A DNA stretch of 64,000 nucleotides from an uncultured Actinomycetota bacterium (GCA_963850835.1 CAWKNB010000021.1:8525-72524), one strand, 5' to 3'. Counted from the stretch's first letter, positions 32,045-57,466 are shown. Numbers and translations: made by a program. Notes: generated from the sequence alone by a model not told the origin.

Positions 32045-32608
32045 CTACGCCGACCTCACGGCAGGCAGTCCGGCACCATGGCTGACGTTCACGCACGCTT
32101 CGCAGATACTCCCTCGGATGAGTCCGATACGCATCAGTGCGGCGAATATTCGGCACCCCACGCACACCGCCGCGAGCGATTCGAGGGACGCGAAGACGAT
32201 GATCATCGCAAGCAGGATCTGGGCGACTCCGTACTGACCGACGGCCGTCAGCACGACGACGCACGTGGTGACGACTGCGCCGATCGCCTGCGCGAACCGT
32301 TTCGGCGGGCCCGGAACCAATCGCGGCGCACCCAACCGGGGCGCAACGACGCGAGTGGCGAGCTGGGCGAGTGGGCTCAGCGTCGGGCCCGAGGCGACCC
32401 GGGCGAGGAAGCCGTACGCGAGGAACACACTGAGCCAGAGCCAGTTCGCTCCAGCGGTCAGGCTCAGAACGAGCGTGACAAGCGCCAACAGCAGGACGCC
32501 GGCGGCGACTGTTCGCGCCGCTCGTTCGTTGACCGGGTTCGGGAACGTGAAGAGTCCGCCCGCCCGCTCTCGCCGCTCGAGCCGCGTGGGCGCGGTATCG
32601 GAGATCAT
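32045..32608 (-). CDS. DUF4395-family membrane protein
   Basis: [28 protein letters not shown] and [15 protein letters not shown] overlap with the carbonic anhydrase stop. Confidence 0.88.
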
Positions 32609-33183
32609 GTCGCACGTCCGGCCGCTGTCGCCTCCGGCACCTCGACGAGCCGGCCGGTGGCCACGTCGTAGATGTAGCCATAGATCGGGATGCGACCAGG
32701 GACGAGCGGATGCCGGCGGATGCGGGAGACGTCGTCGGCGACGCTGCGGGCGTTGTCGGAGATGGTGAGCCAGTCGATGTAAGCGCCCTCGGCCGAACCC
32801 GGTCCGGTGCCGACGTCGCGGAAGCCGTCCGCGCCGAGTTCGGCAGTGTCGAGACTGTTCGCGAGCAGGTCGCGGATGACGTCGTCGGTGAAGAACTCCA
32901 TGCCGCAGTTCGTGTGGTGGATGACGAACCATTCGGTGGTGCCGAGCAGCTTGTAGGAGATCACCAGCGAGCGGATGGCGTCATCGCTGGCGCGGCCACC
33001 GGCGTTGCGGATGACGTGCGCGTCGCCTTCACTCAGCCCGGCATATTTCGCCGGGTCGAGCCTGGCGTCCATGCACGTCAGTATGGCGAATCCGCGAGCC
33101 GGCGGGAGCGCAAGGTCGGCTTTGGCGCCGAACGTTGCCGCGTACTGCTCGTTGGCCTCGAGGACCTCGGTGATCACAGACAT
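32605..33183 (-). CDS. Beta-class carbonic anhydrase (clade D, Rv1284-like)
   Basis: Zn ligands CMDARL and HHTNCGM, plus IRNAGGR. Confidence 0.93.
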
Positions 33184-33245
33184 CGTTACTCCCGTTGTTC
33201 GGTCGGCATGACGGTAGCAGGCGCCTGACCGCGTACTCTATTAAC

Positions 33246-33264
33246 TCTATCGGTATGATAGACA
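33246..33264. promoter_or_regulatory. Palindromic operator copy A (TCTA-N9-TAGACA), overlapping a TATGAT -10
   Basis: TCTATCGGTATGATAGACA, in the divergent region between the carbonic anhydrase and ABC operons. Confidence 0.75.
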
Positions 33265-33270
33265 ATACGA

Positions 33271-33351
33271 GTGAACTCCGGAGCGACGTTGACGTGGATG
33301 ACGGTGGTCGGCCGACCGCGCCACGCAGGCCCTTGTTGTCCGACGTCCTGA
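33271..33351 (+). CDS. Putative Cys-containing leader peptide (MNSGATLTWMTVVGRPRHAGPCCPTS)
   Basis: GTG...TGT TGT...TGA, 26 aa, between operator A and the SBP gene. Confidence 0.5.
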   Translation: MNSGATLTWMTVVGRPRHAGPCCPTS

Positions 33352-33412
33352 CTCCCCTCGCCGATCCTTCGTCGCCGGCCACAGCCGCACCAGAACCCAC
33401 GCAGGAAGTGTC

Positions 33413-35011
33413 ATGCAGACATCGCCCGTTCCCGTTCCCACTCGCCGTTCATTCCTGGCCGCAGCCGGTGCCAGCGGCCTGCTCGCGGTCCTGGCCGCGT
33501 GCACCTCCGGCGATCCGAATGCTCCCGAGTCGTCCGGTGCCAGCCAGTCGGCCGCCGGGTCGGCCCGCAAGCGCGGCGGCACCATCAAGGTCGGCATTCC
33601 GGCACCCCCGACCGCGGTGGACCCGGTGACGATGTACGACGGCTCGGCAATCATCATCGTCCAACTCGTTGCCGACTATCTGATCTGGCTCGACAGCGAC
33701 CTGAAGCTCGTGCCCCGCCTTGCGACGAAGTGGACGGCCGAGCAGGGCGGAAAACGCTGGGCGTTCACGCTGCGCTCCGGCGTGTCCTTCTCCGATGGCA
33801 CGCCGCTGACCGCCCAGGCGGTGAAGGCCTCGTTCGACCGGCTCCTCGACCCCAAGAACAAGTCCGCGGCGTTGTCGGCCTTCGATGGCATCCTCGCCAG
33901 TGGCGGGGTGACCATCCGTGACTCGAGGACGGTCGTCTTCACCCTGCAGCGGACTTTCTCCGACTTCCCCTACCTCGTCTCCGCCGGCAACTACAACGCC
34001 GTCATCCTCAAGGCCGATTACGCCGGCGACTTCGCCAAGAAGCCGATCGGGACCGGCCCGTTCCTGCTCGGCAGCTACAGCACATCTGGTGGAGCGACGC
34101 TGACGCGCAACCCGAAGTATTGGCAGTCCGGCAAGCCCTATCTCGACGGCGTGCAGATCCACTTCTATGCCGACAGCCAGGCCCAGACCTTGGCACTGCA
34201 GGGCGGAGCCGTGGACGTCCTGGGCCTCACCCAGATCAACGATGTGCCGACCGGCGGCAATATTGCCATCGACAAGACGCCGGGCACCGGCATCACCACC
34301 TTCACGCTGCGCACGGACAAGGCGCCCTTCGACAAGAAGGAGGTACGGCAGGCCGTCGCATACGCATTGGACCGCCCGGCGATCAACACCGCCACGAACG
34401 ACGGCATCGGCCAGCTCGGCAATGATCACCTGCTGGCGCCGCTGTTCCCGGCCGCGCCGAAGGACATCGCCCAGCGTGCGAAGAACGTGGCGAAGGCGCG
34501 CTCCCTGCTCTCGACGGCCGGGGTCGACAAGCTCGCGTTCACCCTCACCTATGATCCGCCGAGCAAGGACTTCGCCCTCGCCGTCCAGGATCAGCTCAAG
34601 GACGCCGGGATCACCGTCACCCTCGATCAGCAGAGTTCGCAGGCGTTCTACGGCGGCAACCAGACGAAGGACACACCGTGGCTGTTCTCGACGGCTAATC
34701 TGGTGGGTTGGGCCGGGCGCGCCGTACCGAGCCAGTTCGTCGCCCCGATGGTCACCAGCAAGGGGGTGTGGAACGGCTCGAAGTACGCGAACCCGAAGCT
34801 CGACGCGGCGCTCGTCGCCTACGACGCCGCGGCGACGGCTGCCGAGCGGGCGGCGCAGGCCGAGATCATCGCCTCCGCGATGCACGAGGACGTGCCGGTG
34901 ATCATCGCGGTGTGGAACGGCGCAGCCCGTGCCTACGACCGGACCACGTTCGTCGGCGTGCGGGCCCACCCGGAGAGCTTTCTCGACCTGACTGACGTAT
35001 CCCGGGTCTGA
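33413..35011 (+). CDS. ABC transporter substrate-binding protein (family 5, peptide/nickel type), Tat lipoprotein
   Basis: TRRSFL twin-arginine motif, LAAC lipobox, PRLATKW...FTLRSGVSFSDGTPLTA and PIGTGPF. Confidence 0.92.
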   Translation: MQTSPVPVPTRRSFLAAAGASGLLAVLAACTSGDPNAPESSGASQSAAGSARKRGGTIKVGIPAPPTAVDPVTMYDGSAIIIVQLVADYLIWLDSDLKLVPRLATKWTAEQGGKRWAFTLRSGVSFSDGTPLTAQAVKASFDRLLDPKNKSAALSAFDGILASGGVTIRDSRTVVFTLQRTFSDFPYLVSAGNYNAVILKADYAGDFAKKPIGTGPFLLGSYSTSGGATLTRNPKYWQSGKPYLDGVQIHFYADSQAQTLALQGGAVDVLGLTQINDVPTGGNIAIDKTPGTGITTFTLRTDKAPFDKKEVRQAVAYALDRPAINTATNDGIGQLGNDHLLAPLFPAAPKDIAQRAKNVAKARSLLSTAGVDKLAFTLTYDPPSKDFALAVQDQLKDAGITVTLDQQSSQAFYGGNQTKDTPWLFSTANLVGWAGRAVPSQFVAPMVTSKGVWNGSKYANPKLDAALVAYDAAATAAERAAQAEIIASAMHEDVPVIIAVWNGAARAYDRTTFVGVRAHPESFLDLTDVSRV

Positions 35012-35013
35012 CC

Positions 35014-35976
35014 GTGCGTCGGATGCTCGCGCGCCGCCTGCTGACGCTCCCGCTGGTGCTGCTGGCGGTGTCGGCGTTGGTGTTCGTCGCGACGCAGGTG
35101 CTTCCGGGTGACGTCGCACGGGCGGTGCTCGGTCGGGAAGCGTCGGATGAATCGGTGCGCGAGTTGCGCGACCAATTGCACCTCGACGATCCGATCGTCG
35201 CGCAGTATCTGCGCTGGCTGGGTCACTTCGTCACGGGTGACTGGGGCCAGTCGTACACCCTGCGGGTGCCAGTGCGTGAGCTCGTCCTCGATCGACTCGG
35301 CAACAGCATGTTGCTGGCCGGGTTCGCGTTCGTCCTGCTCGTCCCGGTCTCGCTCGGCCTGGGCATCGTCGCCGGCCTCTGGCATGACCGCCCCGTCGAT
35401 CGGGGCATCTCGGTCCTGAGCCTGGTGTTCGGCGCGATCCCCGAGTTCGTGACCGGTGTCGTCCTGTTGCTGGTCTTCGCCGTGCAACTGGGGTGGTTCC
35501 CGGTCTCGGGACAGGTCCTACCTGGCACCGGGCTGGTCGAGCGGCTCTACCACCTCGTGCTGCCCGCAATCACGCTCGTGCTCTTGTGCACCGGTTACGT
35601 CGCGCGCCACGTCCGCGCCAGCACCATCGCGGTCGTGGAGAGTCCGTACGTGCGCGCTTCGGCACTGCGTGGCGTGTCATGGTCGGCGATCGTGCGGCGT
35701 CACGTGTTGCGAAACTCGACGGTCCCGGCGACCAGCGCGCTGGGTGTGCAGGCGCAGTTCCTGCTCGGCGGGCTCGTCGCCGTCGAGTTGCTCTTCGACT
35801 ACCCGGGTATCGGTGCGCTGCTGCTGTCCTCCGCGGTGAACAAGGATCTGCCCACCCTGCAGGCCACGGCGATCGTCCTGGGCTTCATCTACCTGCTGAT
35901 CATGTTGGCCGTCGAGGTCGTGTATCGGCTGTTGGATCCGCGTATCCGTGCTGCAGGCGAGCGGGTGAGCATATGA
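35014..35976 (+). CDS. ABC permease (DppB-like)
   Basis: LPGDVA, QYLRWL...GDWGQS and EAA loop SPYVRASALRG. Confidence 0.92.
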   Translation: MRRMLARRLLTLPLVLLAVSALVFVATQVLPGDVARAVLGREASDESVRELRDQLHLDDPIVAQYLRWLGHFVTGDWGQSYTLRVPVRELVLDRLGNSMLLAGFAFVLLVPVSLGLGIVAGLWHDRPVDRGISVLSLVFGAIPEFVTGVVLLLVFAVQLGWFPVSGQVLPGTGLVERLYHLVLPAITLVLLCTGYVARHVRASTIAVVESPYVRASALRGVSWSAIVRRHVLRNSTVPATSALGVQAQFLLGGLVAVELLFDYPGIGALLLSSAVNKDLPTLQATAIVLGFIYLLIMLAVEVVYRLLDPRIRAAGERVSI

Positions 35977-36836
35977 CCGTCGTGCTCGCGAAGGACACCG
36001 CGCCGACGCTCGAGGACTCGCCGCCCCCGGTCGTCCGGCGGCGCCGCCCGATCGCGCTCGTCATCGGAGTCACGATGATCGGGGTCTGGGTGGTGTCTGC
36101 GATCGCCTGGCCATGGCTCGTCCCGTTCGACCCGGCGCACTTCGACATCACGCACCGGTTCGCCGCCCCGAGTAGGGAGCATCTGCTCGGCACCGATCAG
36201 TTCGGTCGCGACACCTTCTCGCGGCTGCTCGCCGGCGCGCGTCCGGTGCTGGAGGTGGCACCCATCGCCACTGCGGTGTCGGTCGCGTGCGGAACGGCGT
36301 TGGGCCTGCTCGCCGGTGCTTCGGGGGGACGGGTCGACACGGTGATCATGCGAGCACTCGACATCGTGATGGTGTTCCCGGCGATCATCGCAAGCATCCT
36401 GTTCGTGGCTTTACTCGGTCGTTCGACCACAGTGCTCGTGATCGTCATCGGGCTCGCGTTCGTTCCGATCGTCACCCGCAGCGTGCGCGCCGCCACACTC
36501 GTGCAGCGTGAGCTGCCCTACGTCGATGCCGCCCGCCTGCGTGGTGAGCCGCAATGGTCACTGCTGGCTCGCGAGATCCTGCCCAACGTCAACCGCACCG
36601 TGCTCGTCGAGGCGACCTCCCGTCTCGGCGACGCGGTCTTCGCCGCGGCAACGCTGTCGTTCATCGGTCTCGGTCAGCCGCCCGGCTCGCCCGACTGGGG
36701 CGCATCGGTCGCGGACAACCGGTCGTGGTTGCCGATCGCGCCATGGACTGTTCTCGCCCCGGCCCTTGCTATTGCGTCCCTCGTCATCGGCGTGGCGCTC
36801 GTCAGCGACGACCTGCGCTACCGGCTGGACGCCTGA
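35973..36836 (+). CDS. ABC permease (DppC-like)
   Basis: HLLGTDQFGRDTFSRL, YVDAARLRGE and ILPNV; ATGA overlap. Confidence 0.92.
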   Translation: MTVVLAKDTAPTLEDSPPPVVRRRRPIALVIGVTMIGVWVVSAIAWPWLVPFDPAHFDITHRFAAPSREHLLGTDQFGRDTFSRLLAGARPVLEVAPIATAVSVACGTALGLLAGASGGRVDTVIMRALDIVMVFPAIIASILFVALLGRSTTVLVIVIGLAFVPIVTRSVRAATLVQRELPYVDAARLRGEPQWSLLAREILPNVNRTVLVEATSRLGDAVFAAATLSFIGLGQPPGSPDWGASVADNRSWLPIAPWTVLAPALAIASLVIGVALVSDDLRYRLDA

Positions 36837-36837
36837 C

Positions 36838-38610
36838 ATGGACGGGTTGCGCGCACACTCGCTCTCTGTCGATTTCGCGACCCGCCGCGGCCCAGTCCAC
36901 GTGCTGCGATCCGTCGACATCGCCTGCGCACCCGGTCGGATGCTCGGCGTTGTCGGTGAGTCCGGCTCGGGCAAAACCACCCTCGGCCGAGCATTGGGCA
37001 ACGGGCTCGACCCCGGTGCGCGGGTGAGCGGCAAGGTCGAGGTCGACGGCGTGGATGTGCTCGGTCTCTCGGGCCGGGCGCTGCGCGAGTGGCGGGCGTC
37101 CTCGCTCGCCGTCGTCCATCAGGAGGCGGGTGCCTCGCTCGACCCGACGATGCGCATCGGCACGCAGCTCGCCCAGATCCTCGAACTGCACGGCGTGCCG
37201 CGTGCCCGGCGCACCGAACAGGCCGCAGCATTGCTGGATCAGGTACGGCTGCCAACCACTGCGGCCCAGCGCTATCCCTATCAACTGTCCGGCGGTCAAC
37301 AGCAGCGCGTGGTCATCGCGGCCGCCCTGGCCGGCCGGCCCCGGTTGCTCGTTCTCGACGAACCGACCACCGGCCTGGACGCCTCGGTCGAGGCCGGTGT
37401 GCTGGCCCTCATCGAGGAGCTGCGGGTCCAGCTCGACTGCGCTGTCATTCTGATCAGCCACGACCTCGGCCTGGTGGGTCACCTGTGCGACGACGTCACC
37501 GTGCTCCACGCCGGGCGAGTTGTCGAACACGGTGCCGCCGCCGAGGTGCTCACCCGTCCTGACCACCCCTACACGCGCACATTGCTGCAAGCCGTTCCAG
37601 AGCTCGGCGTTCCCCGCAGCCGGCGTCGCCTCACTCCGACGACCGAGGATGGCGAGATCCCGCCAGAACCAGGCGATGCCCTGCTCGAGGTGCGCGACCT
37701 GCGCCGCAGCTACGGGCGACACGTCGCCGTCGACGGCATCGATCTCGACGTGCGGGCCGGTGAGGTGCTCGGCATCGTGGGCGAGTCGGGCAGCGGCAAG
37801 TCCACGCTGGCGCGGGCGATCGTCGGCCTCGGCCCCCGCGGCGGCGGCACCGTTCGCCTCGCCGGCGAGCCGCTGGCCGAGCAGGTGGCGCGTCGTCCGC
37901 GAGAAGTGCTGCGCCGGCTGCAGATGGTCTTCCAGGAGCCCGACGCGACGCTGAACCCGGCGCACACGACCGCTCGGGTGCTGTCCCGCGCGATCCGCAC
38001 GCTCGGCGGCACGCGTTCGGCCGAACAGCTGGCCGAATGGGCGCATCTCGAGCCGGCGCTGCTGCCGGCCCGGACATCGACGCTGTCCGGCGGGCAGAAG
38101 CAACGGGTGGCCATCGCCAGAGCGTTCGCGGGGTCGGCCGACCTGGTGGTGTTGGACGAACCGGTCTCGGCACTGGACGTCAGCGTGCAGGCCCAGATCC
38201 TCGACCTGCTCGCGGACAGCGCAGCCCGCGAGCGCACCGCGTATCTGTTCGTGTCGCACGACCTGGCCGTCATCAGCTACCTCGCGGACCGGGTAGCGGT
38301 GATGTACCGGGGCCAGGTCCTCGAAAGCGGATCGACGACCGACGTCATCGACGGCCCGCACCATCCCTACACCGCCGAGTTGGTCGGCGCGGCCCGACGC
38401 CGGCCGGTGTCTACCGGCACGGGGAAAACGCTCGACCATCGGGCGGATGACCGCGGTTGCCGGTATGCGGACCGCTGCCCGTTGCATCTCGGCGACGTCT
38501 GCGACGAGCAGACGCCGCCACTGCGCGACATCGCGGCGGGGCATGCCGTGCGGTGTCACCTGCCTGTGCCACAACTGCCTGTCAGCTCAACAGAAAGGAG
38601 ATCAGCATGA
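36838..38610 (+). CDS. ABC ATP-binding protein, fused double domain (DppD/F-like)
   Basis: Two Walker A motifs (GESGSGKT, GESGSGKS), two LSGGQ signatures and a C-terminal CRYADRCP...C...C oligopeptide-type tail. Confidence 0.93.
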   Translation: MDGLRAHSLSVDFATRRGPVHVLRSVDIACAPGRMLGVVGESGSGKTTLGRALGNGLDPGARVSGKVEVDGVDVLGLSGRALREWRASSLAVVHQEAGASLDPTMRIGTQLAQILELHGVPRARRTEQAAALLDQVRLPTTAAQRYPYQLSGGQQQRVVIAAALAGRPRLLVLDEPTTGLDASVEAGVLALIEELRVQLDCAVILISHDLGLVGHLCDDVTVLHAGRVVEHGAAAEVLTRPDHPYTRTLLQAVPELGVPRSRRRLTPTTEDGEIPPEPGDALLEVRDLRRSYGRHVAVDGIDLDVRAGEVLGIVGESGSGKSTLARAIVGLGPRGGGTVRLAGEPLAEQVARRPREVLRRLQMVFQEPDATLNPAHTTARVLSRAIRTLGGTRSAEQLAEWAHLEPALLPARTSTLSGGQKQRVAIARAFAGSADLVVLDEPVSALDVSVQAQILDLLADSAARERTAYLFVSHDLAVISYLADRVAVMYRGQVLESGSTTDVIDGPHHPYTAELVGAARRRPVSTGTGKTLDHRADDRGCRYADRCPLHLGDVCDEQTPPLRDIAAGHAVRCHLPVPQLPVSSTERRSA

Positions 38611-39140
38611 CTGCCGCACCTGTCGGCCCGGAGAACGAGTTCGCCGACCTGTCCGGAGAAGTCACCGTGCAACGTCACTGGTTCACCGCCTCCGTCGGCG
38701 GACATGTCAGCGCCGTCGTCTGGGGCACCGGCACACCGCAGTTCGTGGTGCTGCCCGACGACGGTGTGACCGCCCGCGACCTCGACGAACTGGGGGCTCG
38801 CCTGAGCACCCCCGTCGTCCTGGTCGACCGACTCGGCACCGGACGATCGAGCGGTCCCGCACCCTCGACGCCCGCGCGCGAGGCTCGTCCGCTCGCCGAA
38901 GCCGCGTGGTCGTTCGCACCGAAAACCGAAACACTCGTCGGGCTCGGCGGCGGTGGGGCCGCCGCCGCACTCGCCGCAGCCGCGCGAGCCCGCTCGATCA
39001 CCCGCGTCGTGCTCGTCGGAGTCCCGGCGCCTGACAACCCACCACCCGCGCTCGCCGAGCGCGGTATCCAGATCACCACCCATCCCGACACCGACCCAAC
39101 AGCCCCGGCCGCGGTAGCGGCCCTGCTCGCTAGGCAATAG
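38607..39140 (+). CDS. Truncated alpha/beta-hydrolase-fold protein lacking the nucleophile Ser
   Basis: VSAVVWGTGTPQFVVL and VLVDRLGTGRSS. The elbow reads LVGLGGGG. ATGA overlap and SD AAGGAG. Confidence 0.6.
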   Translation: MTAAPVGPENEFADLSGEVTVQRHWFTASVGGHVSAVVWGTGTPQFVVLPDDGVTARDLDELGARLSTPVVLVDRLGTGRSSGPAPSTPAREARPLAEAAWSFAPKTETLVGLGGGGAAAALAAAARARSITRVVLVGVPAPDNPPPALAERGIQITTHPDTDPTAPAAVAALLARQ

Positions 39141-39156: not shown

Positions 39157-40194
39157 ATGACCACAACCCCTACCGAGAACATCGCCTTGATCGATCTCGG
39201 CCGCGCTCTCGACGGCGACCGCACCGAGCTCGACCGGCTGCGGTTCGCCGGCCAAGACCTCGGCATCATCCAGGTCGTCGATCACGGCGTCGATCAGGCG
39301 CTGATCGAGGAGTTCCACGATCGCATCGCGGCAATCCTGGCCCTGCCTCGCGAGGACAAGATCGAGTTGGCGAGTCCGACCGGGCACCCGTACCGCGGCT
39401 GGCGGCAGTGGCCGGACGATTTCGGTCGACTCGAACTCGAACGGTTCACCTTCGGCAAGTACGACTCGACGGAAGACGCGCGCAACGCGGGTCTCGAGCC
39501 TGAGTACAGCCTGGAGTACGCGCACGCCAACGTCTGGCCGCCGCAGCAGCCGGGCCTGCGGGAGGTCGCGAAGGCCTATCACGCGGCGGCCGATGCACTG
39601 GCACGGCGGGTGCTGGGTGCCTATGCACTCGCGCTCGGGCACGAGCCGTCGGTGTTCCCGGTGGGCGACGGACCGGATCACAGTCGACTGGTCGTGAACA
39701 ACTATCCGACGTGGACCTGGGACGGCTACGACGCGTCGGCGCCGGACGAGCAGAAACTCCTGCTCCTCGAGCACGCCGACGGCAACGTGCTCACCGTGCT
39801 GCACCAACGCGGCGACTACAACGGCTTGCAGGGCCAGCGCGAGGACGGCACCTGGATCACCGTGCCGATCATTCCCGGCGCCCTGCAGGTCTTCTCGGGA
39901 GGCAATCTCGCGCGCTGGACCAACGGCGCGCTGAAGCCGGGCCGGCACCGCGTCGTCGCGGGCGGCAGCGTCACCCGTCTGTCCAGCGGCATGTTCTGGA
40001 GTCCACGCGTCGACACCACCATCGAACCGTTGGCCGCCTTCGTCGGTGACGGCGAGGCGGAGTTCGACCCGGTGGTGATCTGGGACGGCGTCAAGAACGA
40101 CGTCGACGAGTACCTCGCGGTCTTCGGCAGGCCCGAGCAGATCGCGGCCTGGCGCGAAGGCCGCCCGTTCGTCGCCACGTTGGCCGACGCATGA
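39157..40194 (+). CDS. Isopenicillin-N-synthase-family 2OG-Fe(II) oxygenase
   Basis: QVVDHGVD, EHADGNVLTVL (HxD), PGRHRV (distal His) and RLS (RxS). Confidence 0.9.
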   Translation: MTTTPTENIALIDLGRALDGDRTELDRLRFAGQDLGIIQVVDHGVDQALIEEFHDRIAAILALPREDKIELASPTGHPYRGWRQWPDDFGRLELERFTFGKYDSTEDARNAGLEPEYSLEYAHANVWPPQQPGLREVAKAYHAAADALARRVLGAYALALGHEPSVFPVGDGPDHSRLVVNNYPTWTWDGYDASAPDEQKLLLLEHADGNVLTVLHQRGDYNGLQGQREDGTWITVPIIPGALQVFSGGNLARWTNGALKPGRHRVVAGGSVTRLSSGMFWSPRVDTTIEPLAAFVGDGEAEFDPVVIWDGVKNDVDEYLAVFGRPEQIAAWREGRPFVATLADA

Positions 40195-40964: not shown

Positions 40965-40992
40965 CGCCACCTCCGCACGTGTTGGTGAGGAC

Positions 40993-48674: not shown

Positions 48675-48690
48675 AACTCACCTCGCAGGT

Positions 48691-48725: not shown

Positions 48726-48726
48726 T

Positions 48727-48804
48727 GTGAGTGAGACTCGGCGCCGGAGCGGCTGCGGTTGTCCGCGTCGGCAGATCGGCGCGGCCTTGGGCTGTCGACG
48801 CTGA
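48727..48804 (+). CDS. Putative leaderless Cys-containing leader peptide (MSETRRRSGCGCPRRQIGAALGCRR)
   Basis: 25 aa with 3 Cys, starting at the predicted TSS. Its stop lies inside the hairpin at 48800-48837. Confidence 0.65.
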   Translation: MSETRRRSGCGCPRRQIGAALGCRR

Positions 48805-48899
48805 TCAGGAGCAGTTCTCCTCACACCTTCGATCAGCTGTGCAGTGGGTGCCGCACCCGCGCCCAATGAATTCGCAAACTCCCACGGAGGAACCCGTCC

Positions 48900-49992
48900 A
48901 TGCGCAACTCGTCAACCAGAGCGTTCGCCTCGTCCGGCCGAGCGAGACTGATGCAGGTGGCCGCGCTCGCCAGCACAGCGATGTTGGCGCTCGCGGGATG
49001 CAGCTCGTCCGGTTCGGGCGGCGGCGGCGCTGGTGGAGGTGGCGGAACCGAGGTCGGTGTCGGCTACTTCGAGAGCGCGACGATCGGTCCCGAGGTGCTC
49101 GTGGCCGGCAACGCCGACCTTGCCGGCAAGGTCGGCGGCAAGCTCAAGCTCACGCCGATCGACTCGGGCGTCACCGGTCTCGCGTCGCTGCGCGGCGGCG
49201 CCTTCCCGTTCGCGTCCGGCGTCGGCAACCCGCCGGTCACGGGCGCCATCGCCAACGACACCAAGCTCAAGGTGGTCTTCGCCGAGTACTACGACGCCGC
49301 CCAGCTCATCGTCGGGTCGAAGATCAAGGCAAACGCCGACCTGGCCGGCAAGACGGTCGGTGACCTCCAAGGCTCGTCCGAGGACTACGAGATCCGCGGT
49401 TGGTTGAAGACGCAGGGGCTCGACGGCAAGGTCAAGGTCGTCGGCTTCCCCAGCGAGCAGGCCGTCGAGGCCGCATACAAGTCCGGCCGCATCGACGGCG
49501 GTTACGTCGAGATCGCCCAGGCGCAGGAACTGTTGAAGAACACCGTCGAACCGCACCGTGGTCACGGCCCAGCAGATCGCCAAGCTCGGCTACGCCTCAC
49601 TCAACGTGTTGGTGGTCACCGACGCGTTCGCAAGCAAGAACAAGACGATCGTGCAGAACCTGGTGTGCCAGATGATCAAGGCGCAGGCGAAGGTCGCCGG
49701 TTCCGACGGCGACACCTACATCACCAATGGCTCCAAGCTCGTCGGCGCGACACCTGCGACGGCCATCGCCGCCACCAAGGGCCTGCCGTTCGTGTCGGCG
49801 CAGGACCAGCTGACGTGGTTCGGCACCTCCAAGGATGCGTCGAACAGCAAGATCGCCGACTCCTACGTCAAGACCGGTCAGTTCCTCAAGGAGCAGGGCC
49901 GCGTCACGAGCGTCCCGACGAAGGCACAGATCGGTGCGCACATCGACCCGACCTACGTTCAGCAGGCGGTCAAGGACGGCTGCGGCTCGTGA
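48900..49992 (+). CDS. Taurine/sulfonate ABC substrate-binding lipoprotein (TauA-like), frameshift ~49550
   Basis: Lipobox LAGC, LRGGAFPFASGVGNPP and DLAGKTVG, continuing in the 49558 frame. SD GGAGG. Confidence 0.82.
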
Positions 49993-50810
49993 CCGCGGCC
50001 CCGGAGGCGCCGAGTAGGTCGTCGGGCAACGCGCCGATCGCTGTCGAGATCAACGGCGTTCGCAAGCAGTTCGCCGGCCGCTCCCGACGGTCGGCGGGTC
50101 GCCTCGCGCTCGACGGGTTCGATCTGACCGTGCGCGAGGGCGAGTTCCTGTGCCTGCTCGGCCCGTCCGGGTGCGGCAAGTCGACGCTGCTCAACCTGCT
50201 CGCCGGCTTCTCCGATGCCGACGGCGGCGAGGTGCTGGTGGACGGGTCCCCGGTGCGCGGCCCGGGCACCGACCGGGGCGTGCTCTTCCAGACACCGATG
50301 CTCTTCCCGTGGCTCACCGCGCTGGACAACGTCCTCTACGGCCCGCGTGCCCGCCACGAGAGCGGCAAGCAGGTGCGCGATCGGGCGATCGAACTGCTCG
50401 AGACGGTGGGCCTCGGCAGTGCGGTGCACTCCTACCCGCACGAGCTGTCCGGCGGCATGCGGCACCGGGCCGCGTTCGCCCGGGTGCTGATCAACAAACC
50501 GAAGCTGCTGCTCATGGACGAGCCGTTCGGTGCGCTCGACGCGATCACCCGGGTGGCCATGCAGAGGTTCCTGCTCGATCTGTGGCAACGCGAACGGATC
50601 ACGATCGTGTTCGTCACCCACGACGTCGAGGAGGCCGCGCTGCTCGGCGACCGGGTGTGCGTCATGACCGGCAGCCCCGGACGTGCCCGGTTGCAGTTGA
50701 CCGTCGACCTGCCGCGCCCGCGCACCATCGAGACCACCGAGACGCTCGAGTTCGTGCGCATCAAGCGCCAGATCCGCGAGGCCCTCGAAAGCAGGGAGGA
50801 CGAGCGATGA
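49989..50810 (+). CDS. Taurine/sulfonate ABC ATP-binding protein (TauB-like)
   Basis: LGPSGCGKST, LFPWLTALDNV, ELSGGMRHR, LLMDEPFGALD and FVTHDVEEA; GTGA overlap. Confidence 0.9.
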   Translation: MTAAPEAPSRSSGNAPIAVEINGVRKQFAGRSRRSAGRLALDGFDLTVREGEFLCLLGPSGCGKSTLLNLLAGFSDADGGEVLVDGSPVRGPGTDRGVLFQTPMLFPWLTALDNVLYGPRARHESGKQVRDRAIELLETVGLGSAVHSYPHELSGGMRHRAAFARVLINKPKLLLMDEPFGALDAITRVAMQRFLLDLWQRERITIVFVTHDVEEAALLGDRVCVMTGSPGRARLQLTVDLPRPRTIETTETLEFVRIKRQIREALESREDER

Positions 50811-51662
50811 GTGACACCGACGTGCAGGAGGACTACAAGGTCGTCGTCGACGACGCGGACCTGGAGCTGGCCGAGCCGCGGCAGCGGCGCCGTTTCTCCT
50901 GGGCCCGCATCGGGTTCGGCGTGCTCGGCCTGCTGGTGTTCCTCGCGATCTGGCAGATCGCCGCCCTGATCAAGGACGACCCGGCGATCCTGCCGACGGT
51001 GCCGGCAACGGCAAAGACCTTCTGGCACTACCTGTTCAACGACTACCCGTCCGTCGGCGGACACACGCTTGTGGGGCACGCGCTCACGAGCACGCGCCGC
51101 ATCCTGACGGGCTGGGCCATCGGCGTGATCATCGGCGTGGCACTCGGCGGGGCCGATGGCCTCGCTACGCGTCCTGCGGTTCATGGTCGACCCGATCATC
51201 GAGCTCACCAGGCCGCTGCCGCCGCTGGCCTTTCTTCCGCTGCTCATCGTCTGGTTGGGCATCGACGACGCCCGAAGATCACGTTGATCGTCATCGGCGT
51301 CACCCCGATCATCACCATCGCGACGGTCACGGCGCTCGATGCCGTCCCACAGGAGCTGGTGCAGGCGAGTCGCAGCCTCGGGGCGTCGCCGCTCTGGTCG
51401 TTGCTGCACCGTGCGCCTGCGCGCCGCGTTACCGACGATCATCACGGGCATGCGCCTGGCCATGGGCGGCGCGTGGACCAGCATCGTGGCCGCCGAGCTC
51501 ATAGCCAGCACGAGCGGCCTGGGCTACCTGATCAATCAGGCCGGCCAGAACCTGCAGATGTCCCTGCTCGTCAGCGGCATCGTGGCAATCGCCATCATCG
51601 GGCTCGCGCTCGACAGCCTGTTGCGGCTGCTGCACCGCCGCACCGACCCCACCAGCCGGTAG
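50807..51662 (+). CDS. Taurine/sulfonate ABC permease (TauC/SsuC-like), about 3 frameshifts (~51150, ~51270, ~51410)
   Basis: Pieces STRRILTGW, PIIELTRPLPPLAFLPL, ASRSLGAS and GGAWTSIVAAELIASTSGLGY. Confidence 0.82.
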
Positions 51663-51666
51663 CAGC

Positions 51667-52795
51667 ATGTCTTTGCACCTGCACTGGTACCTGCCCACCA
51701 ACGGCGACGGGCGCGGGATCGTGGGCTCCGGCCGGGCCGGAGCGGGCGGTGTCGGCGAGACCTACGCCGTGGAACGGCAGCCGACCATCGACTACCTCGG
51801 CCAGATCGCCCGCTCGGTCGAGCAACTCGGCTTCGAGGCGGTGCTCACGCCGACCGGTAGTTGGTGCGAGGACGCGTGGCTCACGACGGCGGCGCTGTCG
51901 CAGGTGACCAAACGCTTGAAGTTCCTCGTCGCGTTCCGACCGGGTTTCATCAGCCCGACGCTGGCCGCGCAGCAGGCCGCAGACCTTCCAGCGGATCAGC
52001 GGGGGACGGCTGCTGCTCAACGTGGTCACCGGCGGCGATCCCATCGAACAGCGGCGCTTCGGCGACTTCCTGGCCCATGACGAGCGGTACGCGCGGACCG
52101 CCGAGTTCCTCCAGGTGTTGCGCGGCGCGAGCAGCGGTACGCCGTTCGACTTCACCGGGGACCATTTCCGGGTCGAGGGTGCGACCGCCGCGCTGAGCCC
52201 CTGGGGGATGCCGCCGCTGTTCTTCGGCGGCGCGAGCCCGGCTGCGGAGAACGTCGCCGCGAGCCACGTCGACGTCTACCTCGCCTGGGGTGAGACACCG
52301 CCGCAGATCAAACAACGGCTGGACCGGATGCGCGAAAAAGCCGCAACGGCGGGCCGCGAGCTCACCTTCGGGATTCGCCTGCACGTGCTCAGCCGGGACA
52401 CCGCGAAGCAGGCCTGGGCCGAGGCGCAACGCATGGTCGATGATCTCGACCCGGCCCGGGTCGCCGAGGTGCAGGCGCAACTCGCCGCGATGGACTCGGT
52501 GGGGCAACGCCGCATGCAGACGCTGCACAGCGGCGGGCGCCGCGACGAACTGGAGATCTACCCCAACCTGTGGGCCGGCTACGGGCTGGTCCGCGGCGGG
52601 GCCGGCACCGCGCTCGTCGGCAGCCACGAGGAGGTCGCCGAGCGACTCGAGGAATATCACGCCCTCGGCATCGATCACGCCATCCTGTCGGGTCAGCCGC
52701 ATCTGGAGGAGGCGTACTGGTTCGGCGAGGGTCCCGGCCGGTTGCTTCGCCAGCAGGGTGTCGTGGCCGCCGAGGCGAGGTCAGCGGCCGGGTAA
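51667..52795 (+). CDS. ssuD: Alkanesulfonate monooxygenase-like LLM enzyme, frameshift ~51980
   Basis: HWYLPTNGD, LTPTGSWCEDAW, FLVAFRPG, LNVVTGGD, LEIYPNLWAG, GGAGTALVGSH and EEAYWFGE. Confidence 0.85.
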
Positions 52796-54055
52796 CCCGG
52801 CTGCCTGGTGAATCGCCGGGCCGGCGTAGAGGGCGGCGTGCCCCGACGCCACACGTCCGGCGCGGACCTCGTCCACCGCTGCCCGGAGGGCCTCGACCAG
52901 ATCGGGCATCACCCGCGCATGCAGCGGCGAGAGCATGACATGCAAACCGCCCGGCTGCCGGTTGAGCCACCAGCGACGATCTTCGAGCGCGTCACCAACC
53001 GCCGCCATGTCGAGGGTGTCACTCGTGAACTGCAGCACCGGGCCGTCCGGCGGCGCGGTCAGGCGCAGGCCGTCGATCGTTTCGACGGCGCCGACCAACG
53101 CGCGCCGCGCGGCCAGCACCGCTTGTGCCTTGGCGCGGTAGCCGGCATGCCCGTGATACGTCAGCGCCGCCCATGCTCCGGCAATCGGCGGCGCGGGGCG
53201 CGTGCCCGCTGGTGTCGGGGTGGCGTACAGACCACCACCCCATACCTGGTCGTCGAACCAGATCCGTTTGCCTGCGAGCTCCGGCGTGCCGAACGCGATG
53301 ATCGAAGCGCCCTTGAAGCTGTATCCGTACTTGTGTACGTCGGCGCTGATACTCGTCACTCCGGGGACGCGGAAGTCCCAGGGCGGCACCGGTTCACCGA
53401 GCTCCTCGAAGAACGGCAGCACCAACCCACCCAGACACGCGTCCACATGACACAAGATGTCGCGTTCGAGCGCGAGCCGGGCGACCGGCCCGACCGGATC
53501 GACCACGCCGAACGGGTAGCACGGTGCGCTGGCGACGAGCAGCGCTGTGTCCGCTGTGATCGCCGCCGCCAGGGCCTCGGCGTTCAAGCGTTTGTCGGCG
53601 CCGACAGGTACCCGGACCTGCTCGATGTCGAGCAGGTGACACGCTTTGGCGAACGCCGGATGGGCCGTGGTCGCGGTGATGATCTGCGGGTACTCGATCC
53701 CACGCTCGTGGGCGACGGTGCGCGCGACCGCGACCGCGACGAAGATGGACTCGGTGCCGCCGCTGGTGAGCCCGGCCGCGCCCGCCGGACCGTGGAGCAA
53801 CCCGCTCACCATGTCGGTCGCCTGGATCTCCAACCGGGCAAGGCTCGGGAACTTCATCGGATTCAGGGCGTTCTCGGCGAGGTACTCATTGCTCACCTGC
53901 CGGAGCAGATCCTCGAGGACCGGATCGTCCGGCGGGAAGATCAGGCTGAAGATGCGGCCCTGCCGCCACGGCGCGTCGCCATCACGGTTGGCCCGCAGCC
54001 GCGCCATGACCTCGCCTGGCTCGGTGCCGTCCTCGGGCAACCCGTGGTCGCTCAC
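52781..54055 (-). CDS. Group II PLP enzyme, sphingosine-1-phosphate-lyase-like
   Basis: TSGGTESI, AHPAFAKA, PCYPFGVVDP, CHVDACLGG, SISADVHKYGY (PLP Lys) and WGGGLYATPT.AGTRP; GTGA overlap with the upstream DsbA-fold gene. Confidence 0.85.
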   Translation of the reverse strand: MSDHGLPEDGTEPGEVMARLRANRDGDAPWRQGRIFSLIFPPDDPVLEDLLRQVSNEYLAENALNPMKFPSLARLEIQATDMVSGLLHGPAGAAGLTSGGTESIFVAVAVARTVAHERGIEYPQIITATTAHPAFAKACHLLDIEQVRVPVGADKRLNAEALAAAITADTALLVASAPCYPFGVVDPVGPVARLALERDILCHVDACLGGLVLPFFEELGEPVPPWDFRVPGVTSISADVHKYGYSFKGASIIAFGTPELAGKRIWFDDQVWGGGLYATPTPAGTRPAPPIAGAWAALTYHGHAGYRAKAQAVLAARRALVGAVETIDGLRLTAPPDGPVLQFTSDTLDMAAVGDALEDRRWWLNRQPGGLHVMLSPLHARVMPDLVEALRAAVDEVRAGRVASGHAALYAGPAIHQAAGLPGR

Positions 54056-54660
54056 CGCGGGATGGTCGTGCGTTTGAACTCGTTGAGGTCGGTCCAGCCG
54101 GACAACAGGTCCACGACCCGTTCGACGGTCCGGATCGATGCGGCCGCGGCGGAACCGAGCGGGGCACGGTCCATCAGCCGGACGAACACGGCCTGGTCGC
54201 CGGCAACGAAGGTGGGCACGCCCCACAAGCTGTGCGACTCGGCGTGGCGCACGTGCTCGGCCCGGACCCGGCGGAGGGCTTCGCCGGAATCGACCAGGGC
54301 GAAGACCGGCCCGGACGGCACATCGTTGCCCTCGAGCACGCGCGCGACGGCGGCTCGGTCGTCGAGCTGCTTGGCCTCGTCGTGGCGCAACGCGAACAGC
54401 GCACGGTGCACGGCAGCGAACTCGTCGGGGTGCTCATCGCGTACCACGACACCGACCTGCAGCGCGAAAATGCCGGTGTCCTGCTCGGGCTTGTCCCAGA
54501 CATCGGGTTGGCCCTCCTCGACATGAACCTGCCCCAACGAGAAGGGCACGAAGCCGACCTGCCAGTCGGCTCCAGCAGCCAGACCGGTGAGAACGTGTTC
54601 GTGCGCGTTGCGCGCGAACGGGCAGCGGTAGTCCCAAGTGACGTCGAACGACGTTGTCAT
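54052..54660 (-). CDS. DsbA/thioredoxin-fold protein, single Cys (CPFA)
   Basis: VTWDYRCPFA and WGVPTF (cis-Pro loop). Confidence 0.8.
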   Translation of the reverse strand: MTTSFDVTWDYRCPFARNAHEHVLTGLAAGADWQVGFVPFSLGQVHVEEGQPDVWDKPEQDTGIFALQVGVVVRDEHPDEFAAVHRALFALRHDEAKQLDDRAAVARVLEGNDVPSGPVFALVDSGEALRRVRAEHVRHAESHSLWGVPTFVAGDQAVFVRLMDRAPLGSAAAASIRTVERVVDLLSGWTDLNEFKRTTIPR

Positions 54661-54694
54661 GCCAACCCAACCCAACGCTCATGCACAGATATTC

Positions 54695-54711
54695 CCTACT
54701 TGTCCAGTAGA
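54695..54711. promoter_or_regulatory. Palindromic operator copy D (CCTA-N9-TAGA)
   Basis: CCTACTTGTCCAGTAGA, upstream of the dsbA-like gene. Confidence 0.55.
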
Positions 54712-54764
54712 GATTACGAAGACCGCCGCGTCAACAAGCGAGCAGGCGGTCCACGGGTTATATT

Positions 54765-54783
54765 CCTATCAATTTTATAGACA
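54765..54783. promoter_or_regulatory. Palindromic operator copy E (CCTA-N9-TAGACA)
   Basis: CCTATCAATTTTATAGACA, immediately before the SD AGGAG of the FAD/TPR gene. Confidence 0.75.
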
Positions 54784-54796
54784 TAGGAGCACACCG

Positions 54797-57466
54797 ATGA
54801 GCACTCGGGCCGTCATCGCGGTGGTCGGTGCGGGCGCGAGCGGCACGCTCGCCGCGGCGCACCTTGCCCGCGAGGCAGCGAGCCGTCAGCGGGCGCTCGA
54901 CATCGTGGTGTTCGACTCCCAGCCGGCCGGACGTGGCGTCGCCTACTCGACGACGGATCCGCGACATCGACTCAATGTCGCGGCCAAAGGGATGAGCGCG
55001 TGGCCGGACGACGGTGACCACTTCCTGCGCTGGCTGCGCCGGCACGTGGCGGCGGACTTTCCCGTAGGCGGCTTCGCGCCTCGCATTCACTACGCGCAAT
55101 ACCTCGCCGACGTGCTCGACACGGCCGCCCGCGCATCCGCGCAGGTCCATCTCGACATCGTGCGCGCGCGAGTGACCGACGTGACCGTGATCGGCCGCCG
55201 GCTCCGCATCTCGCTCGATGACGGCCGCAGTCGGCCGGCAGACGCCGTCGTGCTGGCACTCGGGCACGGTGAACCCGCCACCGGTTGGGTGCCGGCCGAA
55301 CTCCGCCGCAGTCCACGGTTCGTGGCCGACCCGTGGCGCACGACTCCGGACATCCAACTCGAGTTCGGCGACGACGTCGTCGTTGTCGGCGCTGGCCTCA
55401 CCGCGCTCGACCTGGCCCAGCAATGGGGACGCTCCGGAACTCGCGTGCACGTCGTGTCACGGCACGGAATGCTGCCGTTGCCGCACGCGACGTCACCGGC
55501 ATCGGCCGTACCCTCCGTCGACGCTCTGGCACCGACCGTTGCCGCAGCACGGCGATCGGTGTTCACCGCCATCAGGAAGGCCGACGGAGACTGGCGACGC
55601 GTCGTCGACGGACTGCGACCGGTCACTGCCGATACGTGGGCCGGCTGGGCCGAGGGCGAACGGCGGACGTTCCTGCGCGCGGCGTGTCGTCGCTGGGATC
55701 GAGTCCGGCATCGCATCGATCCTGCCCTGCATGCCTGGGTCGAGCAGCGCCGTGCCGACGGGTCCCTGGTCGTGCACGACGGCACAGTGGCCGCTGCCTC
55801 GACCGACGGCGACCACCCAGTGCTCAGCTTGACCGACGGGTCCGTCATCCGCGCCGCGGCGGTATTGAACTGCACCGGCAGTTGCACCAGCATCGACCGC
55901 AGTTCGGACCCGCTGATGATGAACCTGCTGACCAATGGGCTCGTCACCTCCGGCCCGTTGGATCTGGGCCTGGCGACCGACGGACGAGGAAGACTGCGCG
56001 GCAGCGGCGGCGCCGCGCCCATGTGGACATTGGGTCCGCTGCGGCGCGGACAACTGTGGGAAAGCACTGCAGTTCCGGAGATCCGCGCTCAAGCACAGCA
56101 GCTGGCGGTCGATGTGCTCACCGCGCTGCCGCCCGAGACCGTGCGGCGCCGCCCGCGCGATCCCTACGGGCTGCCGATCAGCGCATCGTCGTCGGCCGCT
56201 GCGCAGTACGTGAAAGCGCTGCACCGCATCCTTCGGGTGCAGTCCGGCGCCGAGACCCTCGTGGCAGATGCGGTCCAGGCGGACCCGCAGTTCGCGCTCG
56301 GCCATGCGGTCCTCGCGCTGCTCGGCACCGAATGGGGTGCTGACGTCGATGCGACAGAATCGCTCGCGGCCGCACAAGCGCTCAGCGGTAACGCCGACGA
56401 GCGCGAGCGTCGATTCATCGAGGTTGCTGCCGCTCGAGTGAACGCTCCGGGACAGGCCTCGGCCGCTGCCTTGATCGCTTACCTGCAGTCATATCCCGAA
56501 GACGCGCTCGCGGTCAGTCTGGCGGTACCGACGATCGCTTTCGGCGGAGCCACGGACGTACCGACCGAGGCGTGGGCGCTCGTCGACACGTTGCAACCCG
56601 CCTACGGTGACGACTGGTGGTATCTCGGGCTGCTCGCCTTCACCCGTCAGGAACAGGAACGCTTCGCCGAGGCCGGCGAACTTGCCGCGCGTGCACTCGC
56701 ACTCGAACCAGCGTCAGGGCACGCAGTCCATGCGCAGGCCCACGTGCACTATGAAACCGGCAAACACCGCGCCGGGCTGGCCTGGCTGGACGCATGGATC
56801 GCAACCTGCGGCGCCAGGGCGTCGCACCTGGCTCACTTCTCCTGGCACGCCGCACTGCACGAGCTTGCGCTCGACGACGCAGCGGCGGCGGTGGCGCGCT
56901 ATCGAGCGCAGTTGGCGCCGCCGGCGGCCAGCGGGATGCGTGCACTGGTCGATTCGGCGTCGCTCGTGTGGCGGATCCGGATGACCGGGGCCGGCAGGAT
57001 CGCCAACGTCGCCGACGTGCTCGACAGCGTGCCGGAGCGACTCCTGATCGCGCCACCCACACCGTTCGCCGCGCTGCACGCTGCAATCGCGCTCGCCGGC
57101 GCCGGCGATTGCCACCGACTGGTGGCGTTGCGTCGCTATGCCCGCACGCGCCCCGGTGCGCTGGCCGACATCGTCGCGCCGTTCGCCGATGCGTTGAGCG
57201 ATCTGGTTCACGACGACCCACAAGGCGCGCTGGAGACCCTGCTCGGTCTCGGTCCGGCCGAGGCGTGGGTGCCACTCGGCGGCAGCGCCGCCCAACGTGA
57301 GATCGTGCAAGAGACGCTGATCCATTGCGCAGCTGCCGCCGGTCGCCTCGACCTCGCTGCCGACATCCTGGCGAGCCGCATCGATCGCCGCAACTCCCCC
57401 GCGGACCGTCGTCGGCGCGAGCAGCTCGTGCACACAGCGACTCCGCAAACCCGTGACGCCGGCTGA
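54797..57466 (+). CDS. FAD/NAD(P)-binding protein (YdhS-like) fused to a TTC38-like TPR domain
   Basis: Two Rossmann motifs (VVGAGASG, VVGAGLTALD), GRGVAYST and LGPLRRGQLWESTAVPEIR, then HAVHAQAHVHYE, HFSWHAAL, LVDSASLVWR and GGSAAQRE. One uninterrupted ORF. Confidence 0.85.
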   Translation: MSTRAVIAVVGAGASGTLAAAHLAREAASRQRALDIVVFDSQPAGRGVAYSTTDPRHRLNVAAKGMSAWPDDGDHFLRWLRRHVAADFPVGGFAPRIHYAQYLADVLDTAARASAQVHLDIVRARVTDVTVIGRRLRISLDDGRSRPADAVVLALGHGEPATGWVPAELRRSPRFVADPWRTTPDIQLEFGDDVVVVGAGLTALDLAQQWGRSGTRVHVVSRHGMLPLPHATSPASAVPSVDALAPTVAAARRSVFTAIRKADGDWRRVVDGLRPVTADTWAGWAEGERRTFLRAACRRWDRVRHRIDPALHAWVEQRRADGSLVVHDGTVAAASTDGDHPVLSLTDGSVIRAAAVLNCTGSCTSIDRSSDPLMMNLLTNGLVTSGPLDLGLATDGRGRLRGSGGAAPMWTLGPLRRGQLWESTAVPEIRAQAQQLAVDVLTALPPETVRRRPRDPYGLPISASSSAAAQYVKALHRILRVQSGAETLVADAVQADPQFALGHAVLALLGTEWGADVDATESLAAAQALSGNADERERRFIEVAAARVNAPGQASAAALIAYLQSYPEDALAVSLAVPTIAFGGATDVPTEAWALVDTLQPAYGDDWWYLGLLAFTRQEQERFAEAGELAARALALEPASGHAVHAQAHVHYETGKHRAGLAWLDAWIATCGARASHLAHFSWHAALHELALDDAAAAVARYRAQLAPPAASGMRALVDSASLVWRIRMTGAGRIANVADVLDSVPERLLIAPPTPFAALHAAIALAGAGDCHRLVALRRYARTRPGALADIVAPFADALSDLVHDDPQGALETLLGLGPAEAWVPLGGSAAQREIVQETLIHCAAAAGRLDLAADILASRIDRRNSPADRRRREQLVHTATPQTRDAG

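Follow-up and report, generated by a model that had tools for sequence, protein, structure and literature searches.

Adjacent organosulfur operons with a shared palindromic operator in an uncultured Actinomycetota bacterium

The tauABCD and ssuEADCB operons of Escherichia coli belong to the CysB/Cbl sulfate-starvation regulon, and in Corynebacterium glutamicum the ssuD1CBA and ssuI-seuABC-ssuD2 clusters are under McbR, CysR and SsuR. The CymR-controlled ytmI/snaA operons of Bacillus subtilis serve the use of S-alkylcysteines, and their enzymes act on thioether amino acids. Here we analyze a gene cluster at positions 32045-57466 of a 64,000-nucleotide stretch of DNA from an uncultured Actinomycetota bacterium (GCA_963850835.1, CAWKNB010000021.1:8525-72524), referred to as the window. 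An earlier, sequence-only reading had taken the cluster for an integrated organosulfur-scavenging island. Its core is ordinary, and sulfonate and taurine scavenging clusters are already textbook.

Like the C. glutamicum ssu/seu clusters, this locus is actinobacterial, combines an SsuD-type luciferase-like monooxygenase (LLM) with a sulfonate ATP-binding cassette (ABC) importer, holds a trio of NtaA/DszA-like LLMs beside a flavin reductase, and carries the palindromic operator of a sulfur regulon. However, the operator here is YCTAY-N7-RTAGR whereas the McbR box is TAGAC-N6-GTCTA, no regulator is encoded nearby, and the locus goes beyond ssu/seu in having a family-5 importer/2-oxoglutarate (2OG) oxygenase/DUF427 operon, a beta-carbonic anhydrase (beta-CA) with DUF4395, a sphingosine-1-phosphate (S1P) lyase-like enzyme with a DsbA-like protein, and a large FAD protein. 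With E. coli tau/ssu it shares TauD and a TauABC-type importer, a flavin mononucleotide (FMN) reductase with an SsuD-like monooxygenase, and sulfur-poor starvation proteins, but its SsuD-like gene falls under the equivalog cut-off, it has another gene order and another regulator, and its tauD is transcribed divergently from the importer. The family-5 importer resembles the E. coli glutathione importer GsiABCD in its solute-binding protein (SBP), two permeases and single fused two-domain ATPase, and the six best-matching solved structures for the SBP include YliB/GsiB (1uqw) and HbpA (3m8u). However, YliB is not the best match (E 5e-26 compared to 9e-41 for the top one), and the operon here adds three enzyme-type genes. 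The B. subtilis ytmI/snaA system, compared by description and not by sequence orthology, is likewise sulfur-regulated and likewise joins an ABC importer, LLMs, a flavin reductase and accessory enzymes, but it is without a 2OG oxygenase or DUF427.

A shared operator and sulfur-poor proteins

The divergent promoter regions of the cluster share a palindromic 17-bp operator, YCTAY-N7-RTAGR. Four strict matches occur in the window where 0.06 are expected, all within three of the four divergent regions, and the whole 4.97-Mb genome (G000) holds seven, four of them in the cluster. The sites, listed without strand, are:

33246-33262: operator R1 (TCTATCGGTATGATAGA), pattern match
45288-45304: operator R2, degenerate, rank 8 genome-wide by position weight matrix (PWM)
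48706-48722: operator R3, pattern match
54695-54781: operators R4a (54695-54711) and R4b (54765-54781), pattern matches

R3 overlaps the spacer and the -10 of the sole sigma-70-like promoter found, and repression is probable because the operator overlaps -10-like hexamers. For comparison we searched 30 congeners at the DNA level. Relative to one of these, G006, the left half of R2 is one base short, and the orthologous sites in G006 and G002 match better.

The operator also accompanies orthologs that lie dispersed in other genomes of the genus. In G002, six of the eight strict sites adjoin genes for DUF4395, beta-CA, the LLM trio, TauD and TauA, a CDO-type thiol dioxygenase with rhodanese, and a sulfotransferase, on six different contigs. 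The operator stands directly upstream of DUF4395 homologs in nine congeners, is linked to beta-CA in three (G002, G014 and G031), and lies 49 bp upstream of the FAD protein ortholog in G041. Other congener sites precede sulfite reductase and siroheme synthase, a TauE exporter (G039), an NMT1-type SBP and CysS, a family-3 SBP, and an arylsulfotransferase. When the pattern was relaxed, 400 kb of G006 searched as control contained two matches. The top PWM site of the genome (contig C14, 107835-107851) is directly upstream of a CDO-rhodanese operon, both proteins of which are sulfur-poor.

A recurrent match found in seven congeners (TCTATCCCTTTCGTAGA) was discarded, as it sits at the 3' end of a coding gene, and the McbR box was ruled out because half-site orientation and spacing differ. 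In the literature we found no match between the palindrome and any described regulator. No helix-turn-helix (HTH) regulator gene lies inside the cluster, and none of the approximately 10 LysR genes genome-wide adjoins an operator; a LysR-type gene at the left edge of the window (3-899, minus strand) is 31 kb away from the cluster and has no operator near. Two candidates were rejected as inconsistent across genomes: an MmyB-like gene, which adjoins a site in G018 alone, and a TetR gene of G013, which adjoins a palindrome that merely resembles the operator. At the G018 locus (L177, contig C4, 2479-3901) the MmyB-like regulator, with HTH_31 and MLTR_LBD domains, is divergent from a sulfotransferase gene, with the operator between them.

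Extreme depletion of cysteine and methionine is a signature of sulfur-starvation proteins. We compared the composition of 23 cluster proteins, four of them represented by congener proxies, with that of 768 background proteins (Mann-Whitney test). Mean Cys+Met content was 1.36% in the cluster proteins compared to 2.61% in the background (p=2e-6). The oxygenase (0.29%), two-domain DUF427 protein (0.39%), alpha/beta-fold-like protein (0.56%) and SBP (0.75%) of the family-5 importer operon fell in the 1st to 6th percentiles, and CDO, rhodanese and sulfotransferase, which belong to the regulon elsewhere, were also depleted. Furthermore, in the five lineages measured the oxygenase contained 0.00% Cys+Met (no Cys, no internal Met); the alpha/beta-fold-like protein contained 0.00% in four of the five and 0.47% (one Cys) in a Streptomyces locus, and the DUF427 protein had one Cys and no Met. 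Because its enzymes are almost sulfur-free in five lineages, this operon is marked as a sulfur-starvation system. The co-regulation proposed by the sequence-only reading is thus supported by a rare operator shared by all four divergent promoters (in degenerate form at R2) and kept before dispersed orthologs, by the depletion of Cys and Met, and by the LLM, TauD, GST or NAD_binding_9 genes that flank the family-5 importer operon in other actinomycetes.

Because the dispersed modules of congeners keep the same operator, we read the cluster as a sulfur regulon with members that have come to lie together in this genome: it is probably a genome-specific physical concatenation of about six operons of one genus-conserved sulfur-limitation regulon. 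The direction in which the operons are regulated, the signal that induces them and all substrates are inferred as follows. A regulator encoded outside the cluster would bind the palindrome in each divergent promoter, probably as a repressor. When assimilable sulfur is scarce the operons would be expressed, and organic sulfur compounds would be imported and desulfurized. TauABC, TauD and the SsuD-like LLM would act on taurine and alkanesulfonates, and three further LLMs, supplied by two flavin reductases, on sulfones, sulfonates or thioethers, while the peptide-type ABC importer, the Ser-less alpha/beta-fold protein, the isopenicillin N synthase (IPNS)-like oxygenase and DUF427 would work together on a further substrate. 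The beta-CA/DUF4395, S1P-lyase-like/DsbA and FAD protein genes would be accessory, and the low Cys/Met content would be as expected for proteins made under sulfur starvation.

Gene content of the cluster

Raw lists of open reading frames (ORFs) were useless because the window has a GC content of about 69%; genes were called by third-position GC and then scanned against Pfam, NCBIfam and PDB sequences. All the components named in the sequence-only reading were recovered, as were its four back-to-back divergent operon pairs, with a divergent promoter region in each. The cluster (32045-57466) comprises 25 genes; exact 4-nt ATGA/GTGA overlaps occur at seven same-strand junctions, and several other junctions lie within 1-7 nt. 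In the first pair DUF4395 and beta-CA face the family-5 importer, alpha/beta-like, IPNS-like oxygenase and DUF427 operon; in the second, three LLMs face FMN_red, Flavin_Reduct, a putative Xi-class glutathione S-transferase (GST) and a nitroreductase; in the third, TauD faces a TauA-type SBP, ATPase, permease and SsuD-like LLM; and in the fourth, an S1P-lyase-like pyridoxal phosphate (PLP) enzyme and a DsbA-like protein face an 889-aa NAD_binding_9 protein. The features are:

32045-32608, minus strand: DUF4395 membrane protein with two C-terminal CxxC motifs (Pfam, 104 bits)
32605-33183, minus strand: small beta-CA, Rv1284-like (Pfam Pro_CA; PDB)
33413-35011, plus strand: family-5 solute-binding lipoprotein of the twin-arginine (Tat) type (Pfam SBP_bac_5; TRRSFL Tat motif, LAAC lipobox)
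35014-36836, plus strand: two ABC permeases, 35014-35976 and 35973-36836 (Pfam BPD_transp_1)
36838-38610, plus strand: fused double ABC ATPase (two ABC_tran and two oligo_HPY stretches, Pfam)
38604-39140, plus strand: 178-aa alpha/beta-fold-like protein without nucleophile serine (ortholog comparison)
39157-40194, plus strand: IPNS/EFE-like Fe(II)/2OG oxygenase (DIOX_N and 2OG-FeII_Oxy, Pfam)
40191-41382, plus strand: two-domain DUF427 protein (40191-40964) and single-domain DUF427 protein (40993-41382) (Pfam PF04248)
41479-42603, minus strand: MsnO8-family luciferase-like oxidoreductase, intact (TIGR03558, 301 bits against a cut-off of 167)
42626-44042, minus strand: LLM-A, NtaA/DmoA-type, frameshifted (TIGR03860, by congener proxy)
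44035-45232, minus strand: LLM-B, NtaA/DmoA-related, with a frame change (TIGR03860 just under cut-off, by congener proxy)
45365-47757, plus strand: operon of FMN_red, Flavin_Reduct, putative Xi-class GST and nitroreductase (Pfam)
47771-48652, minus strand: TauD-family 2OG dioxygenase (Pfam TauD, 215 bits)
48900-52795, plus strand: TauA-type SBP (to 49992), ATPase (49989-50810), permease TauC (to 51662) and SsuD-like LLM (51667-52795)
52781-54675, minus strand: S1P-lyase-like PLP enzyme (52781-54055) and DsbA-like protein (54052-54675) (PDB; Pfam DSBA)
54797-57466, plus strand: 889-aa FAD/NAD(P)-binding NAD_binding_9 protein with a helical C-terminal half (Pfam)

The best PDB matches of the beta-CA are ordinary small beta-CAs (E 1e-38 to 3e-32), the carbonyl sulfide hydrolase 3vqj being more distant (9e-29). 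The MsnO8-type LLM stays in a single frame compared to its orthologs and has no Cys and no internal Met. Against the TIGR03860 (NtaA/DmoA) subfamily cut-off of 279.7, the LLM-A proxy passes with 419.8 and the LLM-B proxy lies just below with 267.8. The best PDB relatives of the GST are of the YqjG type (YqjG 3r3e, E 3e-34), and an exact database look-up of the flavin reductase protein gave no record. TauD covers profile positions 16-267 of 267 in PF02668 (215 bits against a cut-off of 27), and its G002 ortholog is 83% identical. The LLM at 51667-52795 is SsuD-like only: its two pieces are 88-91% identical to an intact G002 ortholog, which reaches 436.9 where the TIGR03565 equivalog cut-off is 518.2.

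The PLP enzyme matches solved S1P lyases over about 400 residues (E 5e-76, compared to 2e-22 for MfnA), and the N-terminal 35-70 residues of the solved S1P lyases are without counterpart in it. No PDB relative of the 889-aa protein was found. It had been described as an FAD/TPR fusion; the FAD part stands as NAD_binding_9, whereas the TPR match to its C-terminal half is not significant (E 0.03-0.3). A 32-aa peptide, also part of the sequence-only reading, does exist as an ORF at 41384-41482, but it is not conserved, DNA similarity to four congeners ending at about 41448-41491.

Neither a tRNA nor, by Rfam, a riboswitch or other RNA family was found in the window. Directly left of the cluster (28687-30663, plus strand) lies a gene for an SdsA/YjcS-type alkylsulfatase (metallo-beta-lactamase fold, Alkyl_sulf_dimr and Alkyl_sulf_C), which is without an operator and has 1.67% Cys+Met.

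The importer, oxygenase and DUF427 operon

The family-5 importer operon of the window is collinear with an operon of Kutzneria, in single frames and at 45-70% amino-acid identity. The SBP, whose PDB relatives include HbpA and YliB, is 69% identical to its Kutzneria ortholog, and both permeases are in a single frame at 69-70% identity. In the oxygenase, H206, D208 and H264 (HxD...H) together with R274 and S276 (RxS) are invariant across 18 homologs. Homologs 55-84% identical occur in many Actinomycetota under generic names only, and the oxygenase was found in one of 400 sampled genomes of the class.

The 178-aa protein was rejected as a true alpha/beta hydrolase because the G-x-S-x-G nucleophile is absent. 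Its orthologs are 36-59% identical and have precomputed Abhydrolase_6 matches, the window copy itself not being significant (Pfam E 0.13). The elbow reads G-x-G-x-G in the window copy and in four orthologs (5/5), so that the "dead hydrolase" of the sequence-only reading has its nucleophile Ser replaced by Gly in all five aligned sequences. For the DUF427 proteins a PDB search gave 3djm as the sole match; DUF427 has a beta-tent fold, and its function is not known (PMC4287342).

We examined ten loci with oxygenase homologs and counted sulfur-type neighbors (LLM, TauD, NMT1-SBP, GST or NAD_binding_9) within 10 kb. Peptide-type ABC genes adjoined the oxygenase in all ten, a small gene lay between ATPase and oxygenase in nine, and DUF427 was adjacent in eight. 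Sulfur-type neighbors were present in five of the ten: three LLMs and FMN_red in Kutzneria; TauD, a sulfonate-type ABC system and LLMs in one Streptomyces, where the importer operon is directly upstream of TauD-tauABC-LLM; an LLM, a GST, a family-3 SBP ABC system and an 848-aa NAD_binding_9 protein in Dactylosporangium; one LLM in Frankia; and an NMT1 SBP in one metagenome-assembled genome. Anchoring the survey on the two-domain DUF427 instead (80 loci) gave almost no sulfur or 2OG neighbors and was misleading because the DUF427 family is broad, whereas the oxygenase anchor recovered the conserved operon.

Literature searches gave no function for the importer/oxygenase/DUF427 operon, and those on capnine lyase, DUF4395/DUF427 function and actinobacterial sulfur-starvation omics returned nothing assigning these genes. 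We tentatively suggest that this seven-gene operon may be an undescribed, conserved Actinomycetota pathway that assimilates sulfur from a peptide-like organosulfur compound, a possibility that falls somewhat short of an even chance.

Dispersed modules, frameshifts and other explanations

Across the 30 congeners the modules of the cluster are either absent or found on different contigs. In G006 a distance of 240 kb separates the LLM trio from the tau operon and the FAD gene is on another contig, while in G002 the LLM trio, the TauD, tauABC-LLM and PLP-DsbA block, the FAD gene, beta-CA and DUF4395 are spread over five contigs. The LLM trio is present in six of the 30, and none of the 30 matches the importer/oxygenase/DUF427 module at the DNA level. 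Synteny with G005, the closest relative, is confined to window positions 1-18.8 kb, with a mosaic beyond. Because the modules lie apart in congeners, the cluster is, judged by this distribution, not an evolutionary unit or a mobile island. Its GC content of 66-70% is like that of the flanks, and no integrase or transposase domain was found in the ORFs scanned by Pfam, no search for flanking repeats at the borders having been made. The sequence-only reading therefore fails in the evolutionary sense of an integrated island: the sub-operons are independent in all congeners examined, and a conspecific contig is without the right half. That reading had set two things against its own claim, independence of the sub-operons in relatives and lack of co-regulation; the former was found, whereas the latter was not, the operator being shared.

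The conspecific contig, an independent metagenome contig (L186), jumps from window position 44665 to 60218, so that 15.5 kb from mid-LLM-B to a sugar SBP gene are missing. At the junction (15509-15558) 53 nt of the DsbA-like gene (window 54350-54402) stand in inverted orientation, and unless L186 is chimeric the gap implies that the right half is absent from some members of the population. L186 is also without window 60975-62881. At window 33500-37000 and 29100-31000 it shows 81-92% identity and 15-70 gaps per kb, compared to 99.5% identity elsewhere, and these stretches are either low-quality sequence or divergent alleles.

The dispersal bears on a second explanation, that the cluster is one strictly integrated pathway whose unassigned enzymes make taurine, sulfonates or sulfinates for TauD, SsuD and the LLMs to desulfonate; the S1P-lyase-like enzyme, for example, could release taurine from a sulfonolipid. 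Tight packing and the shared operator fit such a pathway, as do the PLP-DsbA pair, which stays beside the tau operon in G002, and the Streptomyces and Kutzneria loci that place the importer operon upstream of TauD-tauABC-LLM or beside LLMs. We nevertheless regard it as unlikely, since the modules are unlinked in most congeners, each with its own operator, the importer module is unmatched even in congeners that keep tau or LLM genes, and no sulfonate gene lies within 10 kb of the importer operon at half of its loci elsewhere.

Because Pfam matched several families in two adjacent frames, we checked frames by tblastn with intact ORFs from four congeners, followed by DNA alignments. Five genes change frame: LLM-A at 43170 (one extra base), LLM-B at about 44741-44757, TauA at about 49545, the SsuD-like gene at about 51978, and the TauC permease through three indels (+1, -1, +1) at about 51154, 51274 and 51408. 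The alignments showed extra single bases in the window, outside homopolymers. A single 636-aa ORF (48900-50810) that reads as an SBP-ATPase fusion was dismissed as an artefact of the SBP frameshift.

To sample frames genome-wide, 156 long ORFs from 400 kb of G006 were aligned to the whole genome, 65 of which had orthologs, and 74.6 kb of aligned conserved coding sequence contained eight frame switches. Seven of the eight were aligned at the DNA level and had an extra base in G000 at or near each junction, four being clean enough for a single +1 insertion. The seven affected reference ORFs encode IMP dehydrogenase (guaB), PNPase (pnp), RtcB, an acyl-CoA synthetase, an ABC ATPase, an MFS transporter and a solute-binding protein; two of the approximately 10 LysR genes are also split. 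On contig C12 (536000-543000) three switches, including those in pnp and rtcB, fall within 7 kb, and errors thus cluster locally. Furthermore, L186 is 99.1-99.7% identical to the window over 37-44.6 kb with exactly one indel, the extra base of the window at 43170, and its own LLM-A is intact, with 458 aa. The five frameshifts are, on these alignments, most likely assembly errors and not decay.

Genuine decay of an accessory region, with the lesions in the two LLMs, TauA, TauC and the SsuD-like gene real and the cluster being lost, would account for a frameshift density above that of the genome-wide sample, the fragmentation of an adjacent sugar ABC transporter, the loss of window 44666-60217 from the conspecific contig, and a GC content of contig C21 that is the lowest among all contigs. 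Some lesions could be real, because the local density is about six times that of the sample. However, the identical +1 signature occurs in guaB, pnp and rtcB, the halves of each shifted gene keep 65-91% (mostly 70-91%) identity to orthologs and a high third-position GC, in-frame stops and large deletions are lacking in all the shifted genes, the 99.5%-identical independent contig does not have the LLM-A insertion, and error clustering is seen elsewhere, as on C12. Decay is accordingly a quite improbable explanation of the cluster.

Two further places in the window have broken reading frames. The sugar-type ABC transporter at 57501-59180 (minus strand) is in pieces, with an ATPase C-terminal fragment and a BPD_transp_2 permease in at least two ORFs, and frameshift errors of the kind described above appear to be responsible. 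In an NRPS-like gene at 3759-7361 (plus strand) the ORF that begins at 4089 opens with profile position 209 of the AMP-binding domain, which suggests a further frame change near 4085. False +1 insertions occur in this assembly at a rate of about one per 5-10 kb of coding sequence, and "fusions", "dead" fragments and small peptides in ORF-level readings of it need comparison with relatives.

That the regulator senses thiol or sulfide toxicity, cysteine excess or oxidative stress, and that the cluster is mainly for detoxification, has little probability: the best operator site of the genome precedes CDO-rhodanese, a TauE-type sulfite exporter carries a site in G039, GST, nitroreductase and DsbA-like genes are present, and the CTAT-N7-ATAG geometry presumably resembles LysR/OxyR-type boxes, which we treat as a lead only, but the regulated proteins, including CDO, rhodanese and sulfotransferase, are extremely depleted of Cys and Met, and the regulon takes in sulfite reductase, siroheme synthase and sulfonate importers.

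Several observations weigh against a joined sulfur-limitation regulon. R2 is degenerate, the regulator was not found in the genome-wide search of LysR genes, the composition test used proxies for four of its 23 proteins, and TauD, the PLP enzyme, beta-CA and DUF4395 are not sulfur-depleted. The CDO gene in the same regulon could indicate cysteine or thiol catabolism instead of pure scavenging. Moreover, the five frameshift events in about 7.5 kb of aligned cluster sequence amount to about six times the genome-wide sample, and the independent-assembly check covers the LLM-A lesion only.

As a probable sulfur-limitation regulon whose operons are joined in one genome and dispersed in its relatives, the system ties DUF4395, the small beta-CA, the S1P-lyase-like enzyme and the large FAD protein to sulfur supply across the genus. 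If the pathway suggested for the importer/oxygenase/DUF427 operon is true, it would provide the first functional context for DUF427 and, via the regulon, for DUF4395, and the operon occurs in cultivable Streptomyces, Kutzneria and Dactylosporangium.

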